DNA from: Escherichia coli
GTDB taxonomy: Bacteria > Pseudomonadota > Gammaproteobacteria > Enterobacterales > Enterobacteriaceae
Length of the DNA: 64,000 bases
Assembly (NCBI RefSeq): GCF_036507355.1
Contig: NZ_AP027877.1
Reading direction: 5' to 3' (one strand)
Every line of letters starts with the position of its first letter. Position 1 is the first letter of the stretch. Of the stretch, positions 47,824 to 64,000 are shown piece after piece. The position numbers and the translations under genes were made by a program. The notes below the pieces were generated by a model. That model saw only the letters and a program-made list of their open reading frames with translations. It was not told the DNA's origin and did not search any database.

Positions 47824-48768
47824 ATGAGTCCTGATAATATCGGTTCGGCTGTCAATCGCTTCTCAGGTTGGCCATCTAATGATTCTCTAAAAACAGATAA
47901 AGAATCAATGACATCACCCGTGACTGTGCAGGTAATAAAGATGATTGCCGCCATCCTTGACCCACATCGGATAGTCGTTGGAATCGATACACTTTATACA
48001 ACGCAGCGCGAAACATTTACCTCAGAGAGTCAACAGCTCATTGAATCAGCATTGCAAACACTTCATGTGATGAATTTAAATAATCTGGAAACAAATCGCG
48101 ATGAAGAAGGTCACTATCTGGCTTTTGAATATAACGTTGACACCTCTGACAGAATAACCGTTTCTGCTTATAATGAAAAAAAGCCTGGCTGCTATGGCCA
48201 ATGTCTTGTAATACAGGATGACGAAACAGACTTATTTAACCTGATAAAAATTAAAATTTTCGAAGCCAGGCATAATTATGTCGCTCAATTGATGAGCGAT
48301 CCGGAATTTATGTTCAAATTCAGTTATAGCGCTCAACAAAATAGATTAGAACCTCATCTTCTGGTTCCCGCTTATTTCCCTCTAAAAACAAACGAACCGG
48401 TTACGCAAGAGGATGTACTGTTACTTTATCGTTTCTTTAAAATGAATGATGATTTTAATAAATTAACATCAGATGAATACATGAGTATCCTGACACCTCT
48501 GATGAAGTGTGAGCGTAGCGTCCACGACAACAACAGGTATGTGACGGGCAAAGATACCCTTCTTCTGGACTATCCTCCTTCTGGTAACCAGATACATTTC
48601 CATGTTTTCCCTGACGAATCAGCAACACTAGTCCTTTATTTTTCAAACAATGACCTTGAATGTTTCGTCTTTGAAAGAGATATTCCTAGCCAGTATCGCT
48701 TTTTCAAAATGTTTACCAATCTGGCACTGGTTATAGATCAGTTAACCGAAGCCAATAAAATACTTTAA
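47824..48768 (+). CDS. Hypothetical protein, AT-rich, no recognisable domain
   Basis: 314-aa uninterrupted ORF with visibly lower GC than flanking core genes; absent from the K-12 gene order at this locus. Confidence 0.55.
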   Translation: MSPDNIGSAVNRFSGWPSNDSLKTDKESMTSPVTVQVIKMIAAILDPHRIVVGIDTLYTTQRETFTSESQQLIESALQTLHVMNLNNLETNRDEEGHYLAFEYNVDTSDRITVSAYNEKKPGCYGQCLVIQDDETDLFNLIKIKIFEARHNYVAQLMSDPEFMFKFSYSAQQNRLEPHLLVPAYFPLKTNEPVTQEDVLLLYRFFKMNDDFNKLTSDEYMSILTPLMKCERSVHDNNRYVTGKDTLLLDYPPSGNQIHFHVFPDESATLVLYFSNNDLECFVFERDIPSQYRFFKMFTNLALVIDQLTEANKIL

Positions 48769-48848: not shown

Positions 48849-49271
48849 ATGATACCATCTCAGATCTCTTTCAATACCCTTCCAGTCAATGCAACATACG
48901 CTTCAGAGACAACAGTTGACACACAAAAATTCTCTGACATCCTCTACTCAGCGGGGTGTTCCCTAAAGGATATGGCTTATCTGAGCAGATGTCTGGCATC
49001 AATACACCCGACTATCGCCAAAAACATTTATGAAACAGAAAATCTCAGCGATCAAAAATTACTGCATATTGATTGCCGTAGTACAAATGAAATCAAGATA
49101 AATATCTTTTTTGGTCAGCAAAGAGAAGGGTTAATTGAAATTAGTTCTGACACAGTTATTTTTTCGATACTGTCTTCATTGATTGACTCCGCCATTTCTA
49201 AATTTCAACACCAAAACCCGGTTAACGGTTTAGTTAATCCTGAAATATTGTATGAGGATTATACTGATTAA
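48849..49271 (+). CDS. Hypothetical protein, AT-rich
   Basis: 140-aa ORF immediately downstream of and co-oriented with the 314-aa ORF; plausible RBS (ggaaag) upstream. Confidence 0.45.
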   Translation: MIPSQISFNTLPVNATYASETTVDTQKFSDILYSAGCSLKDMAYLSRCLASIHPTIAKNIYETENLSDQKLLHIDCRSTNEIKINIFFGQQREGLIEISSDTVIFSILSSLIDSAISKFQHQNPVNGLVNPEILYEDYTD

Positions 49272-49818
49272 ATCCACCCTGTCGCGAAAAATGGCCTGCG
49301 TTATTGCCAGACGTAATAAAACCTTTGATTAACGTTACTCATACTGGTAGCACCTTCATGTACCTCTCTTTTTTACGAAAAATCAAAAGAGCTAACTAAG
49401 GTCATAATTCGCATGAATCATTAACCATTTGTTATTTTCAACATTATTTTTACATTAAGCAGAGATGAATTGCAGTGAAATTCGACTTAAATCTTATGAA
49501 ATGCATTTACTCATGGCTAAAACCACGTCACAAAAATGCAAATTAGAAGTAGATCACAATTATCTCAATACATTAAATCAAGTTAATTTTAAAAATTTAA
49601 CATTCATGACATTAGTTGACATAACACACTGAATTAACATGGAAATTTAAAAACACACTTTAAACAATCATTTCCCGAAAGACATTTTGAAAATAGATCA
49701 ATTGCAACATTACGGTCAGATAAAGACACTCCTGTGATATTAAACCTGTGCCGTTATGAACGGCCATAAATACGACGTGTGTAACTTATTTTACTCTCTG
49801 TCTTACAAAGGATTACCC

Positions 49819-50268
49819 ATGAAGAAAGCAACACTTGTGATTGGCGTTATTGGCGCGGACTGCCATGCAGTAGGCAATAAAGTTCTGGACCGCGTTTTTA
49901 GCAACCACGACTTCAGAGTCATTAATCTGGGCGTAATGGTCAGCCAGGACGAATATATTGATGCTGCCATTGAAACTGGCGCTGACGCGATTGTCGTCTC
50001 CTCTATCTATGGGCATGGCGATATCGACTGTCTGGGCATGCGCGAACGCTGCATCGAGCGTGGACTGGGGGACATCCTGCTCTATGTGGGCGGTAACCTG
50101 GTGGTCGGAAAACATGACTTCGCTGACGTGGAAACCAAATTCAAAGAGATGGGATTTGATCGCGTCTTTGCCCCAAGTCATGACTTAGAAGATGTTTGTC
50201 AGCTGATGGCCCACGATATCAACCAACGTCATGACATTGATACTCGTATTCTTGAAGAGGCTATCTGA
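49819..50268 (+). CDS. glmS: Glutamate mutase sigma subunit (B12-binding)
   Basis: [22 protein letters not shown]... with the DxHxxG cobalamin-binding motif; about 149 aa; RBS aaagga. Confidence 0.85.
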
Positions 50269-51656
50269 TGCAAATCGTCTCTGTCGATATTGGATCGACG
50301 TGGACCAAAGCAGCCCTCTTCACCCGGGAGGGGGACGCGTTAACGTTGGTTAACCACGTACTGACCCCAACCACCACCCATCATCTGGCGAAGGGGTTTT
50401 TCTCCAGCCTGAACCAAGTGTTAAACGTAGATAATGCCCTCCCCCTGTTAAACAGCGGTGAGGTTGCATTGAAGTATTCCTCCTCTGCCAAAGGTGGGCT
50501 GGCGGTTGCCGCAATGGGATTGGTGCCTTCTATCACCCTGGAAACCGCGAAAGTAACCGCTCACTCTGCGGGTGCTAAAATTGCGCAATATTACGCCTAC
50601 AAGCTGAACCGCCGTGATATCCAGGCACTGGAAGAAACGCAGCCCGATATTCTCTTGTTCACCGGCGGCACCGACGGCGGAGAAGAAAGCTACGGACTGA
50701 ATAACGCCCGTGTGCTGGCAGAATCCAAACTCGACTGCGCCATTATTTATGCCGGAAACCGGGATATTCAGGACGAGGTGCAGGAGCTCCTCGGGCATAA
50801 AGACCTGACCATCGTCGACAATGTTCTGCCCGATCTTGACCATCCGAACCCTTTAGCCGCACGCCAGGCTATTTGCGACATATTCCTTAAACGCATCGTT
50901 AAAGGGAAAGGGCTGGATGTCATTGTTGATAAAACAGGCGAAGAACCAATGCCGACACCATGGACGGTCTTTGAACTGGTCAAGGCAATCAGTAACGTCG
51001 ATCACAGCTGGAAAGAGTTCATGCTGATCGACATGGGCGGCGCAACCACCGATGTTTATTCCGTCTGTGCCAACACGCTCTCGCCCGACACCGTTTTACA
51101 CGGCGTACCGGAACCCTTCGTAAAACGGACGGTGGAAGGCGATCTGGGAATGCGCGTCTCGGCAGTGGTGGTTGGTGAAAGTGCGAAAGAGTTAGTCAAT
51201 GTGAATTTTGCTCAGCAACCCGCACAGCTGGACGCTTTTTATCATTACCTCCGTCATCTAGTCGCTCATCCCGACTACTTACCCGCAAATGCAGAAGAGA
51301 AATATTTCGATACCGTCCTGGCCGGACTGTGTGTGGGTTATGCCACCGAAAGACATGCGGGCACCAAAAAAGAGGTCTGCACCTGCGTCGGCAATGTCGA
51401 TTTACAGATGGGACGTGACCTGACAACCGTGCGTAAAGTCGTCGGATCCGGCGGATGGCTCTCGCGTGCCAGTCAGTTCGATATGCATCACTGGTTGAAA
51501 TACCGCGAGTTAAACGACGACGGTAAACGCATTCTCTTACCGACCGAATTTGAATATTACCGCGATTCCCGGGGGCTATTACCACTGCTGGCAAACGTCG
51601 CCAGAGTCGATCCGCTGGCCGCCGCGCGCACCAGTATTCAATGCTTAACCCTATAA
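50268..51656 (+). CDS. glmL: Glutamate mutase accessory protein GlmL/MutL-like
   Basis: 462 aa between the S and E subunit genes, the size and position expected for GlmL. Confidence 0.75.
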   Translation: MQIVSVDIGSTWTKAALFTREGDALTLVNHVLTPTTTHHLAKGFFSSLNQVLNVDNALPLLNSGEVALKYSSSAKGGLAVAAMGLVPSITLETAKVTAHSAGAKIAQYYAYKLNRRDIQALEETQPDILLFTGGTDGGEESYGLNNARVLAESKLDCAIIYAGNRDIQDEVQELLGHKDLTIVDNVLPDLDHPNPLAARQAICDIFLKRIVKGKGLDVIVDKTGEEPMPTPWTVFELVKAISNVDHSWKEFMLIDMGGATTDVYSVCANTLSPDTVLHGVPEPFVKRTVEGDLGMRVSAVVVGESAKELVNVNFAQQPAQLDAFYHYLRHLVAHPDYLPANAEEKYFDTVLAGLCVGYATERHAGTKKEVCTCVGNVDLQMGRDLTTVRKVVGSGGWLSRASQFDMHHWLKYRELNDDGKRILLPTEFEYYRDSRGLLPLLANVARVDPLAAARTSIQCLTL

Positions 51657-51674
51657 CAATTAAGGCTGCAATCA

Positions 51675-53120
51675 ATGGAACTTCGAAATAAGAAATTAAC
51701 CCATGACGAATTCATGACCGAGCGGCAACAGGTACTGAAAACCTGGGAAACCGGCAAGGATGTTGAAAACTTTGAAGATGGCGTTAAATACCAACAAACC
51801 ATCCCTGAGCATAAACGCTTCTCTCTTGCGCTGCTGAAAGCAGACAAGGAAGGTAAAACCCTTAGCCAACCGCGCGCAGGTGTGGCGCTGATGGACGAAC
51901 ACATCGAACTGCTGAAAACACTACAAGAAGAGTGCGATCTGCTGCCAAGCACCATCGATGCATATACCCGTCTGAATCGGTACGAAGAAGCGGCTGTAGG
52001 GATTAAAAAATCCATCGAAGCCGGAACCTCTAAACTGAACGGTTTACCGGTAGTTAACCATGGTGTCGCAGCTTGCCGTCGCCTCACCGAAACCCTGCAA
52101 AAACCGCTACAGATCCGCCACGGCACGCCAGATGCGCGTCTGCTGGCTGAAATCTCAATGGCCAGCGGCTTTACCAGTTATGAAGGCGGTGGCATTTCCT
52201 ACAACATTCCGTATGCCAAACGCGTAACGCTGGAAAAATCGATCCGCGACTGGCAGTACTGCGACCGTTTAATGGGGATGTATGAAGAACACGGGATCCG
52301 CATCAACCGCGAACCGTTTGGCCCACTAACGGGTACGCTGATCCCGCCGTTTATCTCGCATTCTATCGCGATAATCGAAGGCTTGCTGGCACTGGAACAG
52401 GGTGTGAAATCTATCACCGTTGGTTATGGCCAGGTCGGCAGCCTGACGCAGGATGTTGCGGCGATCCAGTCTCTGCGTGAACTTGCACACGAATATTTTC
52501 AGAGCTATGGCTATACCGACTATGAATTGAGTACCGTGTTTCACCAGTGGATGGGCGGCTTTCCGGAAGACGAATCGAAAGCGTTCGCTATTATCTCCTG
52601 GGGTGCAGCCGTCGCGGGGATGTCTGGTGCCACCAAAGTCATCACCAAAAGTCCGCACGAAGCCTGGGGTATCCCGACTGCCGCTGCCAACATTCAGGGG
52701 CTGAAAGCCTCCCGCCAGATGCTCAACATGGTCAATGAGCAGAAATTCCCGCCGTGCCCTGCGGTTGAACTGGAAATTGAACTGATTAAGAGCGAGGTTC
52801 GCGCTGTACTGAATAAAGTGTTCGAACTGGGTAATGGTGATATTGCGCGCGGTACGGTGCTGGCATTTGAAGCGGGCGTACTGGATGTGCCATTTGCGCC
52901 AGCCGCCTGCAACGCGGGCAATATTCTTCCGGTCCGTGACAACACCGGCGCGATACGCGTACTGGAAGCCGGAGCCGTTCCATTGCCAAAAGATATTCTC
53001 GATCTCCACCACGATTACGTTGCGGAACGCGCACGCTTTGAAGGACGCCAACCGACATTCCAGATGGTTGTAGATGACATCAATGCTGTATCCCACAGTA
53101 AATTAATAGGAAGACCATAA
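51675..53120 (+). CDS. glmE: Glutamate mutase epsilon (catalytic) subunit
   Basis: 481 aa, the size and position expected for GlmE/MutE. Confidence 0.8.
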   Translation: MELRNKKLTHDEFMTERQQVLKTWETGKDVENFEDGVKYQQTIPEHKRFSLALLKADKEGKTLSQPRAGVALMDEHIELLKTLQEECDLLPSTIDAYTRLNRYEEAAVGIKKSIEAGTSKLNGLPVVNHGVAACRRLTETLQKPLQIRHGTPDARLLAEISMASGFTSYEGGGISYNIPYAKRVTLEKSIRDWQYCDRLMGMYEEHGIRINREPFGPLTGTLIPPFISHSIAIIEGLLALEQGVKSITVGYGQVGSLTQDVAAIQSLRELAHEYFQSYGYTDYELSTVFHQWMGGFPEDESKAFAIISWGAAVAGMSGATKVITKSPHEAWGIPTAAANIQGLKASRQMLNMVNEQKFPPCPAVELEIELIKSEVRAVLNKVFELGNGDIARGTVLAFEAGVLDVPFAPAACNAGNILPVRDNTGAIRVLEAGAVPLPKDILDLHHDYVAERARFEGRQPTFQMVVDDINAVSHSKLIGRP

Positions 53121-54361
53121 TGAAAATAAAACAGGCTCTGTTCACCGCTGGCTACTCCTCATTCTATTTCGATGACCAGCAGGCGATAAAAAACGGAGCG
53201 GGTCATGACGGCTTTTTTTATACCGGGGAGCCGGTAACACAGGGGTTTAACGCCGTTCGTCAGGCCGGGGAGTGCGTATCGGTACAGTTGATTCTGGAAA
53301 ACGGCGCGGTCGCTGTAGGTGACTGTGCTGCCGTACAGTATTCCGGGGCAGGTGGTCGCGACCCACTGTTCCTCGCAGAGCTCTTTATTCCGTTCCTCAA
53401 CGACCATATCAAGCCATTACTGGTAGGCCGCGATGTGGATGCTTTCCTGCCGAATGCCCGTTTCTTCGACAAATTGCGTATTGACGGCAACTTGCTGCAT
53501 ACCGCCGTGCGCTACGGATTATCACAGGCGCTGCTTGATGCTACCGCGCTGGCAACCGGCCGTCTGAAAACTGAAGTGGTCTGTGATGAATGGCAGTTGC
53601 CACGCGTGGCGGAATCCATTCCATTATTTGGTCAGAGCGGCGACGATCGATATATCGCCGTCGATAAGATGATCCTTAAGGGCATCGACGTGCTGCCCCA
53701 TGCGCTGATTAATAACGTCGAAGAGAAGCTGGGCTTTAAAGGTGAAAAACTGCGCGAATATGTCCGCTGGTTGTCGGATCGCATTCTAAGCAAGCGCACC
53801 AGCGCACGCTACCACCCAACCTTGCACATCGATGTATACGGCACTATCGGTCTGATCTTCGATATGGATCCGCTTCGCTGTGCGCAATACATCGCCAGCC
53901 TGGAAAAAGAAGCGCAAGGCCTGCCGCTCTACATTGAAGGGCCGGTCGATGCCGGTAACAAGCCCGATCAAATTCGCCTGCTGACCGCGATTACCAAAGA
54001 GCTGACGCGCCTCGGTTCCGGCGTGAAAATTGTGGCCGATGAATGGTGTAACACCTACCAGGATGTTGTTGATTTCACTGATGCCGCCAGTTGTCACATG
54101 GTGCAAATCAAAACCCCGGATCTGGGCAGTATTCACAACATCGTCGATGCGGTTCTTTACTGCAACAGCCACAGCATGGAAGCGTACCAGGGCGGCACCT
54201 GCAATGAAACTGATGTCAGTGCCCGCACCTGTGTCCACGTCGCCCTTGCCGCTCGCCCTATGCGTATGCTGGTAAAGCCAGGGATGGGCTTTGACGAAGG
54301 CCTCGATATCGTCTTCAACGAAATGAATCGTACTATCGCGCTGTTGCAGGCTAAGGATTAA
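53120..54361 (+). CDS. 3-methylaspartate ammonia-lyase (enolase superfamily)
   Basis: 413 aa, directly downstream of glmE. Confidence 0.82.
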   Translation: MKIKQALFTAGYSSFYFDDQQAIKNGAGHDGFFYTGEPVTQGFNAVRQAGECVSVQLILENGAVAVGDCAAVQYSGAGGRDPLFLAELFIPFLNDHIKPLLVGRDVDAFLPNARFFDKLRIDGNLLHTAVRYGLSQALLDATALATGRLKTEVVCDEWQLPRVAESIPLFGQSGDDRYIAVDKMILKGIDVLPHALINNVEEKLGFKGEKLREYVRWLSDRILSKRTSARYHPTLHIDVYGTIGLIFDMDPLRCAQYIASLEKEAQGLPLYIEGPVDAGNKPDQIRLLTAITKELTRLGSGVKIVADEWCNTYQDVVDFTDAASCHMVQIKTPDLGSIHNIVDAVLYCNSHSMEAYQGGTCNETDVSARTCVHVALAARPMRMLVKPGMGFDEGLDIVFNEMNRTIALLQAKD

Positions 54362-54364
54362 CAA

Positions 54365-55734
54365 ATGGCTCGTTCTTTTAAAGTCTTATCGCCAACAGCA
54401 ATCCTCGGGTATGGATTCCCGGAAGAGAGCTTCCGCAAAGCGATGGCAGAATCACCCGATCTGATCGCCGTTGATGCAGGCTCTTCCGATCCAGGCCCCC
54501 ACTACCTCGGGCAGGCAAACCGTTTACCGATCGCGCAGGGGTCAAGCGCGATCTGCGCTATATGATCACCGCAGGCGTGCAAAATAATATACCGGTGGTG
54601 ATCGGAACGGCCGGCGGTTCTGGTGCCGCTCCACACCTGGAGTGGTGCCGAGAAATAATTCATGAGATTGCCCAGGAAGAGCACCTCTCGTTCTCGATGG
54701 CGTTGATCCCGGCAGACGTTGACAAAGCCATCGTCCACCAGGCGCTGGATAACGGCAAAATCACGGCGCTGGATTTTGTCCCGCCGTTAACCCACGACGC
54801 GATTGACGAAAGTACGTATATCGTCGCGCAAATGGGCATCGAACCCTTCCAGCGGGCGCTAAAAGAAGGCGCGCAAGTGGTGCTGGGTGGGCGCGCTTAC
54901 GACCCGGCCTGCTTTGCTGCGCTACCGATCATGCAAGGCTTTGATGAAGGTCTGGCGCTGCATTGTGGGAAAATCCTTGAATGCGCGGCAATCGCCGCAA
55001 CGCCCGGCTCAGGCTCTGACTGTGCGATGGGCATCATTGATGACAACGGCTTTACGCTGAAGACATTTAATCCGAAGCGTAAATTTACCGAAACGTCAGC
55101 AGCTGCACACACACTGTATGAGAAATCCGATCCCTACTTCCTGCCAGGACCTGGCGGCGTGTTGAACCTGAAAGGCTGCACATTTAAAGCAGTCAATGAC
55201 GGCGAAGTCTACGTCAGCGGTTCTAAGCATGAAGAAACGCCGTATGCCCTGAAACTGGAAGGTGCACGACGGGTGGGCTTCCGCTGTCTGACCATCGCCG
55301 GAACGCGCGACCCGATTATGATCGCCGGGATCGATAAACTCATCGATGAAGTCAAAACCAGCGTTTCGCGTAACCTGTCGCTCGACGATGACAGCATTCG
55401 CATCAATTTCCACCTGTACGGCAAAAACGGGGTGATGGGAGACCATGAACCGATGCAAACTGCCGGGCATGAGCTGGGGATTGTTCTTGATGTAGTTGCA
55501 CCGACCCAGGAAATTGCCAATAGCGTTTGCTCGCTGGTGCGCTCTACCATGCTGCACTACGGCTATGAAAACCGCATCGCTACCGCAGGTAATCTGGCGT
55601 TCCCGTTCTCCCCTTCTGATATCCAGGGCGGGCCGGTATACGAATTTTCCATATATCACCTGATTGAAGCCAACGACGCTCTGCGTTTTGATTTCCATAT
55701 TGAACAGGTGACGCCAGAAGGAGTTCAGGCATGA
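54365..55734 (+). pseudogene. AtuA-like DUF1446 protein with an apparent +1 frameshift near 54515-54565
   Basis: Two consecutive ORFs (54365..54565 and 54562..55734) in different frames together make one ~455-aa DUF1446-type protein. Confidence 0.55.
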
Positions 55735-56048
55735 AACAGTCAATTGTCTCACTGGCGCAAGTCATTCGTTCGAAAAATGCCGGACCTTACGAACTGGTTT
55801 TAGATATTTTATTTAAAACGAAAGAAAACTATGAGCGAGTTAAATCATCAGGGCAATTAACCCCAGAACTGATTGCGCGCTTATATCATGTTGAACCTGA
55901 CTTTATTCATCGTATTGTCTGGTTTGATCCTTCTAACGCAGTAAAAATCGTCATGCCACGAGATATTATCTCCGGGAATGTAGGTGACAATGATGTCTAT
56001 GGTGCACAGCAACATGCACCTTTATTAAATATGAGTTTCGATTTGTAA
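55731..56048 (+). CDS. DUF4387-family small protein (partner of DUF1446)
   Basis: 105 aa, start overlaps the DUF1446 stop. Confidence 0.6.
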   Translation: MKQSIVSLAQVIRSKNAGPYELVLDILFKTKENYERVKSSGQLTPELIARLYHVEPDFIHRIVWFDPSNAVKIVMPRDIISGNVGDNDVYGAQQHAPLLNMSFDL

Positions 56049-56208
56049 AAATCCGAATACTTTTAGCCAACTGACATCCCGTCACTTATTGCAGTTCAAC
56101 ACTTCAGCTATTTGTAAGGTTGTAATAGCAGGTAGATGCCTGAATCTCTATTCAGGCATCTACTTCTCCTGATTCTGATTTATCGCCGTGCACCTGATGG
56201 AGGAAAAA

Positions 56209-57489
56209 ATGAAGAAAATAAGTTTAACCACGATGATTCTTTTGGCGCTGGTACTTGGAATGATTATCGGCGTAGTGCTCAATAACACTGCTTCACCGGA
56301 AACAGCAAAACTCTATGCGCAAGAAATATCGATATTCACGACGATTTTCTTACGACTGATAAAAATGATTATCGCTCCGTTAGTGGTCTCTACCCTGGTG
56401 GTAGGTATTGCTAAAATGGGCGATGCCAAAGCCCTTGGTCGTATTTTTTCTAAAACACTCTTTTTATTTATTTGCGCCTCATTGCTGTCAATTGCCTTAG
56501 GCTTGATAACGGTAAATTTCTTCATGCCAGGCACAGGAATTAATTTTGTTGCACACGGTGCCGAAACCACAGGAGTGGTCGCGTCAGAACCCTTTACGCT
56601 AAAAGTATTTATTTCGCATGCTTTCCCCACCAGCATTGTCGATGCCATGGCGCACAATGAAATTTTGCAAATCGTGGTGTTCTCAATTTTCCTCGGCTGT
56701 AGCCTGACGGCGATTGGCGAGAAAGGCAGCGCCATCGTTCACGCCTTAGATTCGCTGGCACATGCCATGTTAAAGCTCACTGGCTACGTCATGCTCTTCG
56801 CTCCCCTGACCGTATTCGCCGCTATTTCAGCATTGATTGCTGAACGAGGACTGGCAGTTATGGTGAGCGCCGGGATCTTTATGGGTGAATTTTATTTCAC
56901 CATGTTATTACTTTGGGTGCTGCTTATCGGTCTGGCCATCGTTTATGTCGGCCCCTGCATCAGACGCCTGACCCGCGCCCTTTCGGAACCCGCCCTGCTG
57001 GCATTTACCACATCCAGTTCTGAAGCGGCTTTTCCGGGAACGCTTGAAAAACTGGAGCAATTTGGCGTTTCCCCCAAAATTGCCAGCTTTGTCTTACCCA
57101 TTGGCTACTCATTTAATCTCGTTGGATCAATGGCCTACTGCTCCTTCGCCACAGTTTTCATCGCCCAGGCCTGCAATATCCATTTATCCATCGGTGAGCA
57201 AATCACCATGCTGTTGATCCTGATGTTGACCTCGAAAGGAATGGCTGGCGTACCACGCGCCTCAATGGTGGTTATCGCCGCCACGCTCAACCAGTTCAAT
57301 ATTCCGGAAGCGGGGCTGATCTTGCTGATGGGCGTTGATCCGTTCCTTGATATGGGGCGTTCCGCGACAAACGTCATGAGCAACGCAATGGGCGCTGCGA
57401 TGGTGAGTCGGTGGGAAGGCGAACATTTCGGCGAGGGCTGTCGGGGTAAAGCATTAAAACCCAATGAATCGAACGTTGCTCTGCCCTGA
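56209..57489 (+). CDS. Dicarboxylate/amino acid:cation symporter (DAACS/GltP-DctA family)
   Basis: About 427-aa polytopic membrane protein; ATG at 56209 preceded by RBS ggagg. Confidence 0.8.
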   Translation: MKKISLTTMILLALVLGMIIGVVLNNTASPETAKLYAQEISIFTTIFLRLIKMIIAPLVVSTLVVGIAKMGDAKALGRIFSKTLFLFICASLLSIALGLITVNFFMPGTGINFVAHGAETTGVVASEPFTLKVFISHAFPTSIVDAMAHNEILQIVVFSIFLGCSLTAIGEKGSAIVHALDSLAHAMLKLTGYVMLFAPLTVFAAISALIAERGLAVMVSAGIFMGEFYFTMLLLWVLLIGLAIVYVGPCIRRLTRALSEPALLAFTTSSSEAAFPGTLEKLEQFGVSPKIASFVLPIGYSFNLVGSMAYCSFATVFIAQACNIHLSIGEQITMLLILMLTSKGMAGVPRASMVVIAATLNQFNIPEAGLILLMGVDPFLDMGRSATNVMSNAMGAAMVSRWEGEHFGEGCRGKALKPNESNVALP

Positions 57490-57596
57490 GGGGGATCTTA
57501 AGCAATCAGAAGCCAATGACTACGCATTTTTATAAGCCGGATCATGAAGTTAGACGGCAATTAAGTAACACTAACGTTTAAGGTGAAAAGTGAAAT

Positions 57597-59249
57597 ATGT
57601 CCAAACCATTTATCTGGCAAGAACCGTTTCTACAAAATAAAGACGGTACAGAATATACATTAATTAGCGATCAACATATTACAGTAACGGAATTAGACGG
57701 CGAAGAAGTGATAAAAATCGCTCCTGAAGCATTAACGCTGCTTGCCCGGCAGGCATTTTATGAAGCCTCTTTTTTCTTACGTTCCGCTCATTTGCAACAG
57801 GTCGCCAGCATTCTTAACGATCAGCAGGCCAGCAGTAATGATAAATACGTTGCGTTGCAGTTATTACGTAATGCTGAAGTCTCAGCAAAAGGGGTATTAC
57901 CCAACTGTCAGGATACCGGCACCGCAACTATTGTTGCCAGTAAAGGGCAACAGATATGGACCGGAAGTAACGACGCCGAAGCTTTAAGTAAAGGCATTTA
58001 CAGTACTTTCCAGGAAAATAATCTGCGCTTTTCACAAAATGCGCCGCTGGATATGTATACCGAAGTCAATACGCAAACCAATCTCCCGGCGCAGATTGAT
58101 ATCAGCGCTGTCGCTGGTGATGAGTACCATTTTCTCTGTGTTAATAAAGGGGGCGGCTCCGCCAATAAAGCCGCGCTTTATCAGGAAACCAAATCCTTAT
58201 TGCAACCAGAAAAACTGACCGCATTTTTAATCGAAAAAATGAAATCGCTGGGCACCGCTGCCTGCCCGCCTTACCACATCGCCTTTGCCGTCGGAGGGCT
58301 TTCAGCCGATCAAACCTTAAAAGTTGCCAAGCTGGCCTCAACGAAATATTACGACAATTTGCCCACCAGCGGAAACGAGCAGGGACAAGCATTCCGTGAT
58401 ATTGAGCTGGAAAAAGCGTTGCTCGAGGCCAGTCAGCAATTTGGTATTGGTGCACAATTTGGGGGGAAATATTTCGCTCATGATATTCGCGTCATTCGTC
58501 TGCCGCGTCACGGTGGCTCTTGCCCGATAGCTATGGCGCTCTCCTGTTCTGCCGATCGCAATATCAAAGCAAAAATTAACAAACACGGTATCTGGCTAGA
58601 AAAACTCGAACACAATCCGGGGCAATATATTCCAGCCTCATTGCGGGAAGAAAATCACGCGCAACATGTACAACTGGATCTAAACCGTCCGTTGCGTGAC
58701 GTGATGCTGGATCTCGCCAGATTACCGGTAGGTACCCGCGTGTCGTTAAGTGGTCCCATCGTAGTGGCGCGCGATATCGCCCACGCCAAAATAAAAGCGC
58801 GGCTGGATAGCGGCGAATCGATGCCGGAGTACCTGAAGCATCATATTGTCTATTACGCTGGCCCGGCGAAAACACCGGAGAACATGGCCTGCGGTTCACT
58901 GGGTCCAACCACGGGCGGTCGAATGGATGGTTATGTCGATACCTTCCAGGCGGCCGGCGGCAGTCTGGTGATGTTATCGAAAGGTAACCGCAGCCAGCAG
59001 GTCACCGATGCCTGTCACAAACATGGCGGCTTCAATCTGGGAAGTATTGGCGGTGCAGCTGCGTTACTGGCGCAAGAATATGTCAAAAGTCTGCGTTGCC
59101 TGGAATACCCGGAGCTGGGTATGGAAGCGGTGTGGATGATGGAAGTGGAAAATCTGCCCGCATTCATCCTGGTAGATGATAAAGGCAATAATTTCTTTAG
59201 TCAGTTTGAGCAGCAACACCGCTGCGCCAGTTGCCCTGCGGGACATTAA
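57597..59249 (+). CDS. fumD: Class I (Fe-S) fumarate hydratase paralog, likely mesaconase (FumD-type)
   Basis: 550 aa with class I fumarase features; embedded in the methylaspartate cluster. Confidence 0.8.
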
Positions 59250-59258
59250 GGAAAATGA

Positions 59259-59861
59259 ATGGAAGCGCGAATTTCAACTGAACGGCATGTGCAGCGCCAA
59301 CAGAAATTGAAGGAACAGGTCGATACGCGCGTCGCGGCGGCGATAGAGAAAAAAGGGATCTTGATTGTTTTCACCGGCAACGGCAAAGGGAAATCCACTG
59401 CCGCGTTTGGTACTGTGACGCGCGCGGTGGGTCATGGCAAAACGGTGGGGGTTGCGCAGTACATCAAGGGGCAATGGGACAACGGCGAATACAACCTTCT
59501 CCAGCCGCTGGGGGTTGAGTTTCATATTATGGGAACCGGTTTTACCTGGGAGACACAGAACCGGCAAGCGGATATCGACGCGGCGAAAGAGGTCTGGTCG
59601 GAAAGCAAACGGATGCTGGCTGACAAGCGTTACGACTTAGTGGTGCTTGATGAGCTGACCTATATGCTGGCTTACCATTATTTGGATACCGAAGAAGTGA
59701 TCGCTTCTCTGCAAAACCGCCCGGCACAACAAAGTGTCATTGTCACCGGACGCGGTTGCCACAGTCAGATATTAAAAATGGCGGATACGGTAAGCGAAAT
59801 CCGCCCCGTCAAACATGCTTTTGATAACGGCATTCAGGCCCAGCCGGGTATAGACTGGTAA
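59259..59861 (+). CDS. Cob(I)alamin adenosyltransferase (CobA/BtuR-type paralog)
   Basis: 200 aa with P-loop VFTGNGKGKSTAAFG and strong similarity to BtuR. Confidence 0.85.
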   Translation: MEARISTERHVQRQQKLKEQVDTRVAAAIEKKGILIVFTGNGKGKSTAAFGTVTRAVGHGKTVGVAQYIKGQWDNGEYNLLQPLGVEFHIMGTGFTWETQNRQADIDAAKEVWSESKRMLADKRYDLVVLDELTYMLAYHYLDTEEVIASLQNRPAQQSVIVTGRGCHSQILKMADTVSEIRPVKHAFDNGIQAQPGIDW

Positions 59862-59894
59862 TAACTGCGCCTGGCATCCCGCCAGGCGCAGGTT

Positions 59895-60557
59895 TTACAT
59901 CTCCTGCGGTACGACCGATTTCGCCAGCAACCATTCACGAAATTGCTGCAAGTGCGGTGAGTCAGACTTCTCTTCCTGCCACGTCATAATAAAACGATTA
60001 CCGGTACGAATAGGCACATCACAGGGAATCACCATATCGCCACTATCCAAATCATGTTGAATAGCGAAACGTGGTAACAGCGCCACGCCGAGATTAGAGC
60101 GCACGGCGGCAATCAGCATTGAAAGCAAATCGAAACGTGGTCCGTTATTGACCAACGGACTGCTAACGCCAGATAAAGCAAACCACTCTTCCCAGCCAGT
60201 AATACGGGTGCTTTGATGCAGAAGCGGTAACTCAGTAAGCAGTTCTGCCACTGACAGCTTTTGATCGGACATTGCAAGCAAACTGCCGCTGCATACCGGC
60301 AAAATCTCCTCATCAAAGAGATATTCTACTTCCGCCCAGGGCGCGCAAAAATTTTCGCGCATAATGACAGCATCGTACTCCCGATTAAGAAAATCGCCGT
60401 TATTAGCTAAAGAATGAATATTAACAATAATATCGGGATGTAACTTTGTGAATTCATGTAAATTTGGGATCAACCAGTGGGTACTAAAAGTAGGATTAAC
60501 GGCAAGTTCAATAACCTGAACCGTAGGCTGCCAGGTCATAATGGTATTGGTATCGCG
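59895..60557 (-). pseudogene. LysR-family regulator, C-terminal part (interrupted by IS1)
   Basis: LysR substrate-binding domain; frame is continuous with the N-terminal HTH fragment once IS1 and one copy of the 9-bp duplication are removed. Confidence 0.8.
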
Positions 60558-60612
60558 GGTGATGCTGCCAACTTACTGATTTAGTGTATGATGGTGTTTT
60601 TGAGGTGCTCCA

Positions 60613-60888
60613 GTGGCTTCTGTTTCTATCAGCTGTCCCTCCTGTTCAGCTACTGACGGGGTGGTGCGTAACGGCAAAAGCACCGCCGGACATCAGCGCT
60701 ATCTCTGCTCTCACTGCCGTAAAACATGGCAACTGCAGTTCACTTACACCGCTTCTCAACCCGGTACGCACCAGAAAATCATTGATATGGCCATGAATGG
60801 CGTTGGATGCCGGGCAACAGCCCGCATTATGGGCGTTGGCCTCAACACGATTTTACGTCACTTAAAAAACTCAGGCCGCAGTCGGTAA
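60613..60888 (+). CDS. insA: IS1 InsA
   Basis: [41 protein letters not shown]...; slippery A6C site (ttaaaaaactc) near 60868 for the InsAB' fusion. Confidence 0.95.
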
Positions 60889-61310
60889 CCTCGCGCATAC
60901 AGCCGGGCAGTGACGTCATCGTCTGCGCGGAAATGGACGAACAGTGGGGCTATGTCGGGGCTAAATCGCGCCAGCGCTGGCTGTTTTACGCGTATGACAG
61001 GCTCCGGAAGACGGTTGTTGCGCACGTATTCGGTGAACGCACGATGGCGACGCTGGGGCGTCTTATGAGCCTGCTGTCACCCTTTGACGTGGTGATATGG
61101 ATGACGGATGGCTGGCCGCTGTATGAATCCCGCCTGAAGGGAAAGCTGCACGTAATCAGCAAGCGATATACGCAGCGAATTGAGCGGCATAACCTGAATC
61201 TGAGGCAGCACCTGGCACGGCTGGGACGGAAGTCGCTGTCGTTCTCAAAATCGGTGGAGCTGCATGACAAAGTCATCGGGCATTATCTGAACATAAAACA
61301 CTATCAATAA
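60807..61310 (+). CDS. insB: IS1 InsB (transposase C-terminal frame)
   Basis: 167-aa frame overlapping insA in -1 frame; ...[44 protein letters not shown]... Confidence 0.93.
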
Positions 61311-61326
61311 GTTGGAGTCATTACCG

Positions 61327-61577
61327 GTATCGCGTTCCAGCTTATTTAATGTTTCTTTTACTATCCCCAGGTAATACTTCCCAGCATCATTAAGAAAAAT
61401 GCGTTTTTTAGAGTGTGAAAATAACGGAGTACGTAAAAATTCCTCCAGCGCACTTACTTGTCTGAATACTGCACTTTGGGTTAACGCTAACTCCTCTGCC
61501 GCTCTGGTATAACTTTCATGACGTGCGACGACCTCAAAAGTCACCAGCAGTTCCGTTTTAGGTATTTTCCCTCGCAT
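61327..61577 (-). pseudogene. LysR-family regulator, N-terminal HTH part (interrupted by IS1)
   Basis: ...FEVVARHESYTRAAEELALTQSAVFRQVSALEEFL... helix-turn-helix; the frame runs into IS1. Confidence 0.8.
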
Positions 61578-62142
61578 AATGCCGTCCCTTAAAAATAGTT
61601 TAAACCATCAAAAATACATTACTTATTACGAAGTAATGGTAACCAAAGCAGCAATAAATAATTTATAAGAATCATGATTGACATTTATAAACCAGTAAGC
61701 CTGGCGTGACAAATATCTTAATCAGATAATAATAATCCGAAAAGCACAGCGCCTTTCGAATTATCCGGAATCACATTAAGTGAAAATTATTAAATTGATA
61801 TCATTTATCATATCTGTGGATATTATGATAAACAATCAACAAAGATTTTATTTTTGATTTATAGCATATCCCTCTAAGAATTTTTGCGATGCTGCAATAT
61901 CCGGGGTAAAGACCCGATCCTGGCTGACAAATGGCACGACTTGACGAAAAGCGGTGAACATCGCTTTTGTTGATTTACTTAACGCTACGGTCAAACGCTG
62001 GGAAGCCAGTGCATCAGGTAACGATTCGAAATTCGCCGTCGTTCTTATTCGTGGCTTGCGGTCGGTTGCGGCAATCCACAGTGGCTGTGGTCATGCAGTC
62101 AAGCCTGCAGTCAGATTTCGACCGTGGTTAACCGTTTAAGGC

Positions 62143-62169
62143 ATAAAAAAGGCCATCATACGATGGCCA
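62143..62169 (-). terminator. Rho-independent terminator downstream of sucD
   Basis: ggccatcgtatgatggcc hairpin followed by a T-run on the minus strand. Confidence 0.7.
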
Positions 62170-62243
62170 ACCATGTCGAAACCGACAGCCCTTCGCCATT
62201 CCTGTAGAGGGAAGCGGCGAGGGCTATTTCTTATTACAGATAT

Positions 62244-63113
62244 TTATTTCAGAACAGTTTTCAGTGCTTCACCGATATCCGCCAGGCTGCGAACGGTTTT
62301 CACGCCTGCGGCTTCCAGAGCAGCGAATTTCTCATCCGCAGTCCCTTTCCCACCGGCAATGATGGCACCCGCGTGGCCCATACGTTTGCCTTTCGGCGCA
62401 GTCACACCAGCGATGTAACCCACAACTGGCTTGGTAACGTGCTCTTTGATGTACGCAGCTGCTTCTTCTTCAGCGCTACCGCCGATCTCACCGATCATCA
62501 CGATCGCTTCGGTCTGCGGATCTTTTTCGAACATTTCGAGAATGTCGATAAAGTTAGAGCCAGGGATCGGGTCACCGCCGATACCGACACAGGTCGACTG
62601 ACCGAAACCGTAATCCGTGGTCTGTTTAACCGCTTCATAGGTCAGTGTACCGGAACGGGAAACGATACCCACTTTACCCGGTTTGTGAATGTGACCCGGT
62701 TGGATACCAATTTTGCATTCACCCGGGGTGATAACGCCTGGGCAGTTCGGGCCGATCATACGAACGCCGGCTTCATCCAGTTTCACTTTCACAGTCAGCA
62801 TATCCAGCGTCGGGATGCCTTCAGTGATGGTGATAATCAGTTTGATGCCTGCGTCGATGGCTTCCAGAATGGAGTCTTTGCAGAACGGTGCTGGTACGTA
62901 GATAACAGAAGCGGTAGCGCCAGTAGCAGCAACAGCTTCACGCACGGTGTTGAACACCGGCAGGCCGAGGTGGGTAGTACCGCCTTTACCTGGAGTTACG
63001 CCACCAACCATTTTGGTGCCGTATGCAATGGCCTGTTCAGAGTGGAAAGTCCCCTGGCTACCGGTAAAGCCCTGGCAGATAACCTTGGTGTTTTTATCAA
63101 TTAAAATGGACAT
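62244..63113 (-). CDS. sucD: Succinyl-CoA synthetase alpha subunit
   Basis: 289 aa [33 protein letters not shown]... Confidence 0.97.
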
Positions 63114-64000
63114 TATTTCCCCTCCACTGCGGCAACAACCTGCTGAGCTGCATCCGTCAGACCTTTTGCTGCAATAATATTCAGGCCGCTGTCAGCCAGT
63201 TTCTTCGCGCCGAGTTCGGCGTTGTTACCTTCCAGACGTACCACGACCGGTACGTTAACACCCACTTCCGCTACCGCGCCGATGATACCGTCAGCGATCA
63301 GATCGCAACGAACGATACCGCCGAAGATGTTAACCAGAACGGCTTTCACTTTGTCGTCAGAGAGGATGATTTTGAACGCTTCGGTTACACGTTCTTTGGT
63401 TGCGCCGCCGCCAACGTCCAGGAAGTTAGCCGGTTCTCCGCCGTGCAGTTTAACGATGTCCATCGTACCCATCGCCAGACCTGCGCCGTTAACCATACAA
63501 CCGATGTTACCGTCCAGCGCAACGTAGTTCAGTTCCCACTGTGCAGCCTGTGCTTCACGTGGATCTTCCTGCGACTGGTCACGCATTTCGCGCAGATCAG
63601 GCTGGCGGAACAGGGCGTTGCCATCAGCGCCCAGTTTGCCGTCGAGGCAAATCAGATCACCCTGTTTGGTGATGACCAGCGGGTTGATTTCGATCAACGC
63701 CAGGTCGCGCTCCAGGAAAATGGTCGCCAGGCCCATGAAGATTTTGGTGAACTGCTGAACCAGTTTACCTTCCAGACCCAGTTTGAACGCCAGCTCGCGT
63801 CCCTGATACGGCATCGGGCCAGTCAGCGGATCAAGCGCAACTTTGTGGATCAGGTGCGGAGTTTCTTCCGCCACTTTTTCGATTTCCACGCCGCCTTCGG
63901 TAGAGGCCATAAAGACCACGCGACGTGAACTACGGTCTACAACGGCACCGAGATACAGCTCTTTAGCGATATCGGTCGCCGCTTCAACCAGAATCTGGTT
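63113..64000 (-). CDS. sucC: Succinyl-CoA synthetase beta subunit, 5' end beyond window
   Basis: C-terminal ~295 aa ending ...[10 protein letters not shown]; frame open to the window edge. Confidence 0.95.

Follow-up and report, generated by a model that had tools for sequence, protein, structure and literature searches.

Analysing a window of 64,000 nucleotides from Escherichia coli (the whole stretch examined here, from contig NZ_AP027877.1 of assembly GCF_036507355.1), we observed that a LysR-type regulator gene, located at the sucD-proximal edge of an island for B12-dependent glutamate mutase, methylaspartase and mesaconase, is split by an insertion sequence. Our explanation, to which we assign a probability of about 0.85, is that an IS1 element of the IS1A type transposed into codons 82-84 of this gene and that the regulator was thereby lost.

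The element has all parts expected of a complete IS1, as the first-pass annotation of this DNA had claimed:

60558-61325, + strand: complete IS1 (IS1A type), 768 bp, established by a script check of the termini and by sequence comparison
60558-60580: IRL, the left terminal repeat of IS1, sequence GGTGATGCTGCCAACTTACTGAT
61303-61325: IRR, the right terminal repeat of IS1, which reads GGTAATGACTCCAACTTATTGAT when reverse-complemented
60613-60888, + strand: insA, 91 aa, reading frame open
60807-61310, + strand: insB', 167 aa, reading frame open
60862-60870, + strand: A6C slip site for the -1 frameshift, TTAAAAAAC

The 23-bp terminal repeats are imperfect (18/23 positions match), and the element is identical at 766/768 nucleotides to the annotated IS1A of K-12 MG1655 (NC_000913.3, 19796-20563), which has the same 768 bp, the same 23-bp imperfect ends, insA/insB' and the A6C site. 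Substitutions are located at IS1 positions 444 and 486; in the conceptual InsAB' product of the -1 fusion (232 aa) the sole difference is an R130 here instead of the S130 in K-12, and the site of insertion is new relative to the K-12 copy. A copy designated 'IS1A family' in strain E200086 differs from the present one at 2 positions, and an 'IS1B family' copy in strain MEW at 9. In the NCBIfam model of the IS1 transposase (NF033558, cut-off 100 bits), the insB' product scores 145.6 bits, while the 91-aa insA product by itself reaches 91.3 bits and thus falls slightly below the cut-off. With every sequence feature intact, the copy is active-looking. It is the only IS1 in the 64-kb window, and its transposase genes and the regulator gene are read in opposite directions.

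The target duplication of IS1 usually comprises 9 bp in direct orientation. A perfect 9-bp direct repeat had already been noted on first reading, and both of its copies are found where they belong:

60549-60557: left copy of the 9-bp target-site duplication, GGTATCGCG
61326-61334: right copy of the 9-bp target-site duplication, GGTATCGCG, corresponding to codons R82-D83-T84 on the minus strand

Each copy directly abuts one end of IS1 and the two agree at 9/9 positions; for a single predetermined pair of positions, such agreement would arise by chance with a probability of about 4e-6.

With IS1 and one copy of the repeat removed, an uninterrupted open reading frame of 301 aa is restored, spanning 61577 to 59895 on the minus strand, so that the interval 59895-61577, originally delimited for the locus, marks the exact ends of the split gene. 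The rebuilt protein contains the Pfam domains HTH_1 (PF00126, residues 9-67, E 1e-16) and LysR_substrate (PF03466, residues 96-293, E 6e-28). Codons 82-84 are part of the linker between the helix-turn-helix and effector domains, just where the interruption had been placed, and the two domains now reside on separate fragments in the window:

61326-61577, - strand: 5' part of the regulator gene, codons 1-84, winged helix-turn-helix and start of the linker
59895-60557, - strand: 3' part of the regulator gene, codons 82-301 and stop, effector-binding domain

The reading frame of the 5' fragment continues into IS1 as far as a stop at 61245 and encodes 110 aa, 84 of them native and 26 encoded by IS1. 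The 3' fragment is severed from the promoter and the start codon of the gene; its longest ATG-started reading frame comprises 214 aa from Met88 (60539), and a consensus scan of the minus strand at the junction revealed no outward promoter at the left end of IS1 that would drive this C-terminal fragment. In annotation, the two fragments are best recorded as a single pseudogene that IS1 interrupts. The co-inducer-responsive tetramer of a LysR-type regulator assembles only if both domains are present in one chain. Here, IS1 separates the DNA-binding domain (residues 1-84 plus the 26-aa IS1 tail) from the domain for effector binding and oligomerisation, and because the former cannot form the tetramer in the absence of the latter, a functional regulator presumably can no longer be made, rendering the strain a predicted regulator null.

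Judged by its sequence, the regulator is a relative of GcvA, DsdC and AmpR. It shares the two-domain architecture of this branch, and GcvA, the choline-sulfate regulator and DsdC are its top NCBIfam matches, all with full-length alignments. The best of them, the GcvA subfamily NF008352, yields 221.5 bits against a cut-off of 288, for which reason an identification as GcvA itself was rejected; moreover, the genomic partner of the regulator is the methylaspartate cluster and not gcvTHP or dsdXA. An ortholog is ECs_0755 of O157:H7 Sakai ('transcription regulator'), which occupies the same place in the sucD-cobO interval in the same convergent orientation, but is intact, whereas the copy in the window is split by IS1; O157:H7 alleles of the gene show 99.1% nucleotide identity. 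The regulator is the 'LTTR' in Fig. 5 of Kronen and Berg (2015; PMC4682846). A literature search on it, including the locus tags ECs0755 and Z0885, returned no relevant experiment and only the label 'putative'.

The empty site is preserved in another assembly, GCA_905398585.1 (L051), which came to our attention via the product of a frameshifted AtuA-family gene that it shares with the window (see below), not via the search of complete genomes. The two sequences differ by 3 substitutions over 16,193 bp on one side of IS1 and by none (0/2,675 bp) on the other. L051 possesses a single copy of GGTATCGCG at the empty site, and on account of this single 9-mer we accept the duplication as settled. 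Its intact regulator gene is identical at 906/906 nucleotides to the rejoined halves of the window gene, and thus provides the comparison with an uninterrupted regulator that the first-pass annotation had suggested. Because a near-identical genome has the site empty and a gene identical to the two halves, the insertion is, on the evidence of this alignment, a simple transposition with target duplication and very recent, both halves of the gene having remained without further change; the earlier description of the event as simple and recent is borne out.

Among 5,426 complete E. coli genomes, none (0/5,426) has IS1 at this site. Two records covered more than 80% of the query spanning the insertion, and their IS1 copies are located elsewhere, in strain MEW (an IS1B) in the spacer between the regulator gene and sucD and in strain E200086 (an IS1A) within fumD. 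An exact look-up of the 110-aa regulator-IS1 fusion in the gene-position collection returned no record, and the best match of the island among complete genomes is only 99.2% identical. The insertion is specific to this strain and ordinary in kind: element and gene were already known, and the insertion allele alone is new.

The regulator gene is adjoined by the following features:

49819-50268, + strand: glmS
50268-51656, + strand: glmL
51675-53120, + strand: glmE
53120-54361, + strand: methylaspartate ammonia-lyase gene
54365-55734, + strand: AtuA-family/DUF1446 gene, frameshifted here
54508-54511, + strand: 1-bp deletion in a G-run of the AtuA-family gene (GGG here, GGGG in the reference)
55731-56048, + strand: DUF4387 gene
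56209-57489, + strand: dicarboxylate/amino-acid symporter gene
57597-59249, + strand: gene of the class I fumarase FumD (mesaconase)
59259-59861, + strand: cobO
59865-59891, + strand: GC-rich hairpin of 11 pairs followed by a T-run, terminator-like, between cobO and the regulator gene
61578-62243, - strand: AT-rich spacer of about 660 bp 5' of the regulator gene, with the presumed promoter inside
61618-61637: palindrome ATTACTT-N6-AAGTAAT in this upstream spacer
62151-62168: terminator-like hairpin of sucD

The cluster from glmS to cobO (49819-59861) lies entirely on the + strand and the regulator gene on the - strand, with the stop codons of regulator and cobO 34 bp apart. The two genes are thus convergent, tail-to-tail, and the first reading, which had the regulator divergent from the cluster, was mistaken on this point. 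Beyond the upstream spacer follows the 3' end of sucD in the same direction as the regulator, and the spacer itself holds no divergent gene. IS1 should have no polar effect on the cluster, since the regulator gene is convergent with cobO and a terminator-like hairpin stands between them. An Rfam search of positions 59000-63200 at gathering thresholds gave no match.

The deletion in the AtuA-family gene leaves reading frames of 66 aa and 390 aa. The exact 66-aa product occurs on 14 other contigs, L051 among them, and because L051 shares this product while having the site empty, the frameshift is, by this comparison, older than the IS1 insertion. Given this frameshift, the pathway may already have been impaired before IS1 arrived.

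That the LysR-type protein is the dedicated regulator of the island, as had been considered likely on first reading, is plausible in view of its genomic context. In complete E. coli genomes, the regulator gene is present in 1,127 and the island in 1,116. Across 32 species-representative genomes (Escherichia, Citrobacter, Salmonella enterica subsp. arizonae and diarizonae, Klebsiella oxytoca, K. grimontii, Raoultella, represented by a MAG, Enterobacter, Lelliottia, Pluralibacter and Buttiauxella), an ortholog of 79-93% identity is always situated at the cobO/fumD end of the cluster, always convergent, and is intact in 32/32; compared with E. whittamii, the dN/dS of the gene is 0.04. If the rearranged loci of Yersinia and Yokenella are included, the linkage between regulator and cluster is conserved in about 34 enterobacterial genomes. 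The Yersinia enterocolitica ortholog (63% identity) is located inside the cluster, with fumD-cobO coming after it and, in divergent orientation, an operon encoding a uroporphyrinogen methyltransferase, a GHMP-kinase, glmS-glmL-glmE, the lyase, the AtuA-family protein, DUF4387 and the symporter. In Yokenella (57% identity) the operon transcribed divergently from the ortholog comprises B12-uptake-like genes and, after them, glmS-glmL-glmE and the lyase gene. A homolog of 44% identity in Leeia has unrelated neighbours and is not linked to the cluster.

LysR-type regulators are frequently, but not obligatorily, divergent from the gene or operon under their control. Divergence from the glm-mal operon is found only in Yersinia and Yokenella, whereas the loci of Escherichia, Citrobacter, Salmonella and Klebsiella are convergent. 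In Citrobacter, a divergent gene for uroporphyrinogen-III methyltransferase adjoins the regulator, a gene which E. coli does not have at this place. Likewise, Citrobacter, Salmonella and K. oxytoca contain a PocR-like AraC regulator beside the LysR gene that is missing from E. coli, and in Citrobacter, Salmonella and Klebsiella the principal control might be exerted by this AraC protein.

We searched the island's five intergenic regions for an operator, looking at T-N11-A type dyads and inverted repeats, and among the many AT-rich dyads no motif common to the upstream region of the regulator itself and the cluster promoters could be established. The palindrome ATTACTT-N6-AAGTAAT is without counterpart in the rest of the window: with up to 3 mismatches allowed there are 4 hits, compared with 2.2 expected, and 0 of them in the cluster promoters. 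Comparing dyads over the intergenic regions of Yersinia, Yokenella, Citrobacter and E. coli, we found none convincingly conserved. One candidate in front of glmS, the dyad TTTAAAAACACACTTTAAA, is similar to a block in Citrobacter, TAAATTGTGTTTA, but was discarded, as neither E. whittamii nor Escherichia sp. E1V33 conserves it. Of sites similar to ATAGATCAAT there are 3, where 0.93 would be expected, and all are confined to the 5' part of the island; 7/100 shuffles also reach 3, and as a post hoc finding these sites amount to a weak lead only.

Most catabolic LysR-type regulators activate transcription when their co-inducer is present, and because of this dependence the likeliest effect of the insertion would be that the glm-mal genes lose their inducibility. 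Were the protein an activator, these genes would no longer be inducible in the strain; were it a repressor, they would be derepressed. The expectation of an uninduced or deregulated cluster, voiced by the first-pass annotation, is weakened by the older AtuA-family frameshift, by the lack of a shared operator motif and by the inactivity of the pathway in O157:H7 ATCC 700728, in which methylaspartase activity was undetectable in all conditions tried (Kronen and Berg 2015; PMC4682846). The same authors found no conditions for expression of the island in E. coli. The complete O157:H7 genomes that we sampled carry a full-length regulator. With the AtuA-family gene of this lineage frameshifted beforehand, the insertion probably has little practical consequence; it adds another natural knockout to those of an accessory metabolic island and matters little beyond the strain.

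Disruptions of the regulator and of other island genes are found in further strains. Null alleles of the regulator comprise stops at codons 75, 81 and 95, deletions of 1, 2 and 10 bp, a frameshift in strain MSB1_3B (flagged as pseudogene) and a 22-aa in-frame deletion in a Shigella dysenteriae allele. Mobile elements contributed an IS10-like element with its own target duplication within the regulator gene of Escherichia sp. MOD1-EC7003 and, in strain 14EC033, an IS1B-associated deletion extending from the symporter gene into the regulator gene. Two further genomes (L009 and L013) have split cobO, symporter or fumD genes. The other insertion-sequence events in the island, including those of MEW and E200086 mentioned above, concern different sites, elements and lineages, and each is independent of the IS1 in the window.

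General caution is required when counting these alleles: most of the regulator nulls were found with a truncated product as query, which can return broken genes only, and their number overstates the frequency. An intact protein identical to our reconstruction is present on at least 1,000 contigs, whereas the two fragments found most often occur on 42 and 176. We rejected the idea that the Q95* allele is common, as it is found on 176 contigs in a large collection, but its 61-mer in only 1/1,103 complete genomes. Among evenly sampled complete genomes, 1/39 has an indel in the regulator. Since the gene is intact in 32/32 species representatives, shows a dN/dS of 0.04 and is rarely broken in the less biased samples, selection seems to preserve the regulator in E. 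coli as well. Taken as a whole, the pattern fits a sporadic decay of an accessory island, driven by insertion sequences, rather than a targeted adaptive loss of the regulator.

Of the alternatives, the best one accepts the insertion as real and regards it as functionally neutral, the regulator of Escherichia being no longer, or never having been, the main controller of the cluster. Its ancestral target would have been a divergent operon starting with the uroporphyrinogen-III methyltransferase gene, whose loss in E. coli left the regulator orphaned at the edge of a decaying island. We consider this possible, yet doubtful. It would agree with the regulator being divergent from that methyltransferase gene, missing in E. 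coli, in both Yersinia and Citrobacter, with the presence of the PocR-like regulator alongside in other genera, with the decay of the island in several E. coli strains (the AtuA-family frameshift here and on 14 other contigs, E200086, 14EC033, L009 and L013), with the many independent null alleles of the regulator and with the undetected expression in O157:H7 (PMC4682846). An orphaned gene, however, is difficult to reconcile with orthologs kept intact in all 32 representatives at so low a dN/dS, with an intact protein on at least 1,000 contigs as opposed to 42 and 176 for the commonest fragments, or with the scarcity of both Q95* in complete genomes and indels in the even sample (1/1,103 and 1/39). 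Natural regulator nulls with an otherwise intact cluster do exist, Q95* being an example, and they fit either a tolerated loss or a weak role of the regulator.

Compared with the loss of a dedicated regulator by a chance transposition, explanations in which the loss is favoured seem improbable. One of them sees in the repeated knockouts (the IS1 described here, the IS10-like element, the IS1-associated deletion and at least 9 null alleles, by point mutation or indel, from other lineages of E. coli) a selection to switch a cryptic island for B12-dependent glutamate fermentation on or off in particular hosts; we give it little credence, but were it true, the IS1 strain and its twin with the empty site would form a natural isogenic pair for finding the conditions of island expression in E. 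coli. The other, slightly less probable still, assumes that the regulator represses the island or is costly, so that its knockouts are repeatedly selected. It draws on at least 12 independent disruptions (IS1, IS10-like element, stops, deletions, frameshift and in-frame deletion), most of which stem from the search with a truncated product that was able to return broken genes only; the low frequencies in unbiased sets, the breakage of other island genes, resembling a general decay, and the long-term dN/dS of 0.04 also speak against it.

An assembly artefact, in which the assembler misplaced a copy of IS1, can be dismissed almost entirely: many E. coli genomes contain several copies of the element (10,216 records matched) and assemblies commonly go wrong at repeats, but misplacement would not yield a flawless 9-bp duplication of a target that is single-copy at the empty site of L051, both junctions lie exactly at the IS1 termini, and the flanks are otherwise collinear with L051 and virtually identical to it. 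The window strain and GCA_905398585.1 differ at the locus essentially by IS1 alone, which would make them, provided that both strains can be obtained, a natural pair for studying whether the regulator controls the island.

The LysR-type regulator gene (ECs_0755 ortholog), which IS1 has split in the window, is broken in other strains as well. In Escherichia sp. MOD1-EC7003, the orthologous gene is divided between two contigs (L047, 3900-4206, and L048, 1-120) with the break near residue 155; IS10-like termini (TGAGGGATCCCC... and ...GGGGATTCCTCAG), bordered by a repeated CGCCGTGGTC, are present at the ends of these contigs. This is a separate IS insertion into the same gene, independent of the IS1 in the window. 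In E. coli 14EC033 (NZ_CP024147.1, locus L065, 4762-6100), an IS1B-family element has a truncated symporter gene on one side and the initial ~100 bp of the regulator gene on the other. The loss of fumD, cobO and the greater part of the regulator gene points to an IS1-associated deletion within the same island. A third type of allele carries the nonsense mutation Q95* (CAG to TAG; L062, 9001-9906, protein P0126), while the rest of the cluster is intact. In the large collection 176 contigs (354 index blocks) carry this allele, but among 1,103 complete genomes just one does, and it is probably the marker of a heavily sampled clone.

Further features of the island in the window, whose glutamate mutase/methylaspartase/mesaconase genes glmS to cobO lie on the plus strand, are as follows:

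47824-48768, ORF of 314 aa, ECs_0767 ortholog, annotated as hypothetical protein
48849-49271, ORF of 140 aa, ECs_0766 ortholog, annotated as hypothetical protein
49272-49818, glmS upstream region, 547 bp, very AT-rich
54365-55734, AtuA-family/DUF1446 gene of the cluster, with a 1-bp deletion in a G-run at about 54508-54511
56132-56163, perfect 14-N4-14 palindrome GTAGATGCCTGAAT-CTCT-ATTCAGGCATCTAC in the interval separating the DUF4387 and symporter genes

The deletion in the G-run splits the AtuA-family gene into ORFs of 66 and 390 aa. A sequencing error is ruled out as its source, because the same frameshift product is encoded on 14 further public contigs; the frameshift is thus a real lineage marker, and it is older than the IS1 insertion.

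Both hypothetical ORFs, situated at the island end nearer to cydA, had no match in NCBIfam. Sites resembling ATAGATCAAT occur three times in the 64 kb (47402, 48733 and 49693) against 0.93 expected, each of them in the island's 5' part, and the one at 49693 lies within a block conserved in E. whittamii; they offer a weak lead, noticed post hoc, to a candidate operator. The palindrome, for which internal terminator, attenuator and operator are possible roles, is present as an exact copy in nine of the fetched E. coli loci and was not found in exact form in other genera.

The DNA upstream of the regulator differs among E. coli strains (L006, 1-3479; L009-L011, 1753-3151; L003, 7394-8791): some carry amidohydrolase, arginase-family and aromatic-lyase genes, a set like that for histidine utilisation, and in others an RtcB-family gene is transcribed divergently from the regulator. 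The window has sucD as the direct upstream neighbour and lacks the mngRAB genes of K-12. Additional genes precede the regulator outside Escherichia (loci L017, 7850-9594; L026, 7920-9640; L025, 8758-9645; L046, 8839-9618). A gene for a PocR-like AraC regulator (275 bits against the NCBIfam PocR model, under its cut-off) is located upstream of the LysR-type regulator in Citrobacter, Salmonella and Klebsiella oxytoca, and Citrobacter additionally has a divergent uroporphyrinogen-III C-methyltransferase gene there; neither gene is present in E. coli. Yersinia enterocolitica (L066) and Yokenella regensburgei (L067) show an altered gene order, in which the regulator is internal to the cluster and divergent from the operon holding glmS-glmL-glmE-mal; in Yokenella this operon begins with B12-uptake-like genes (FecCD, ABC ATPase, TonB-dependent receptor and periplasmic binding protein).
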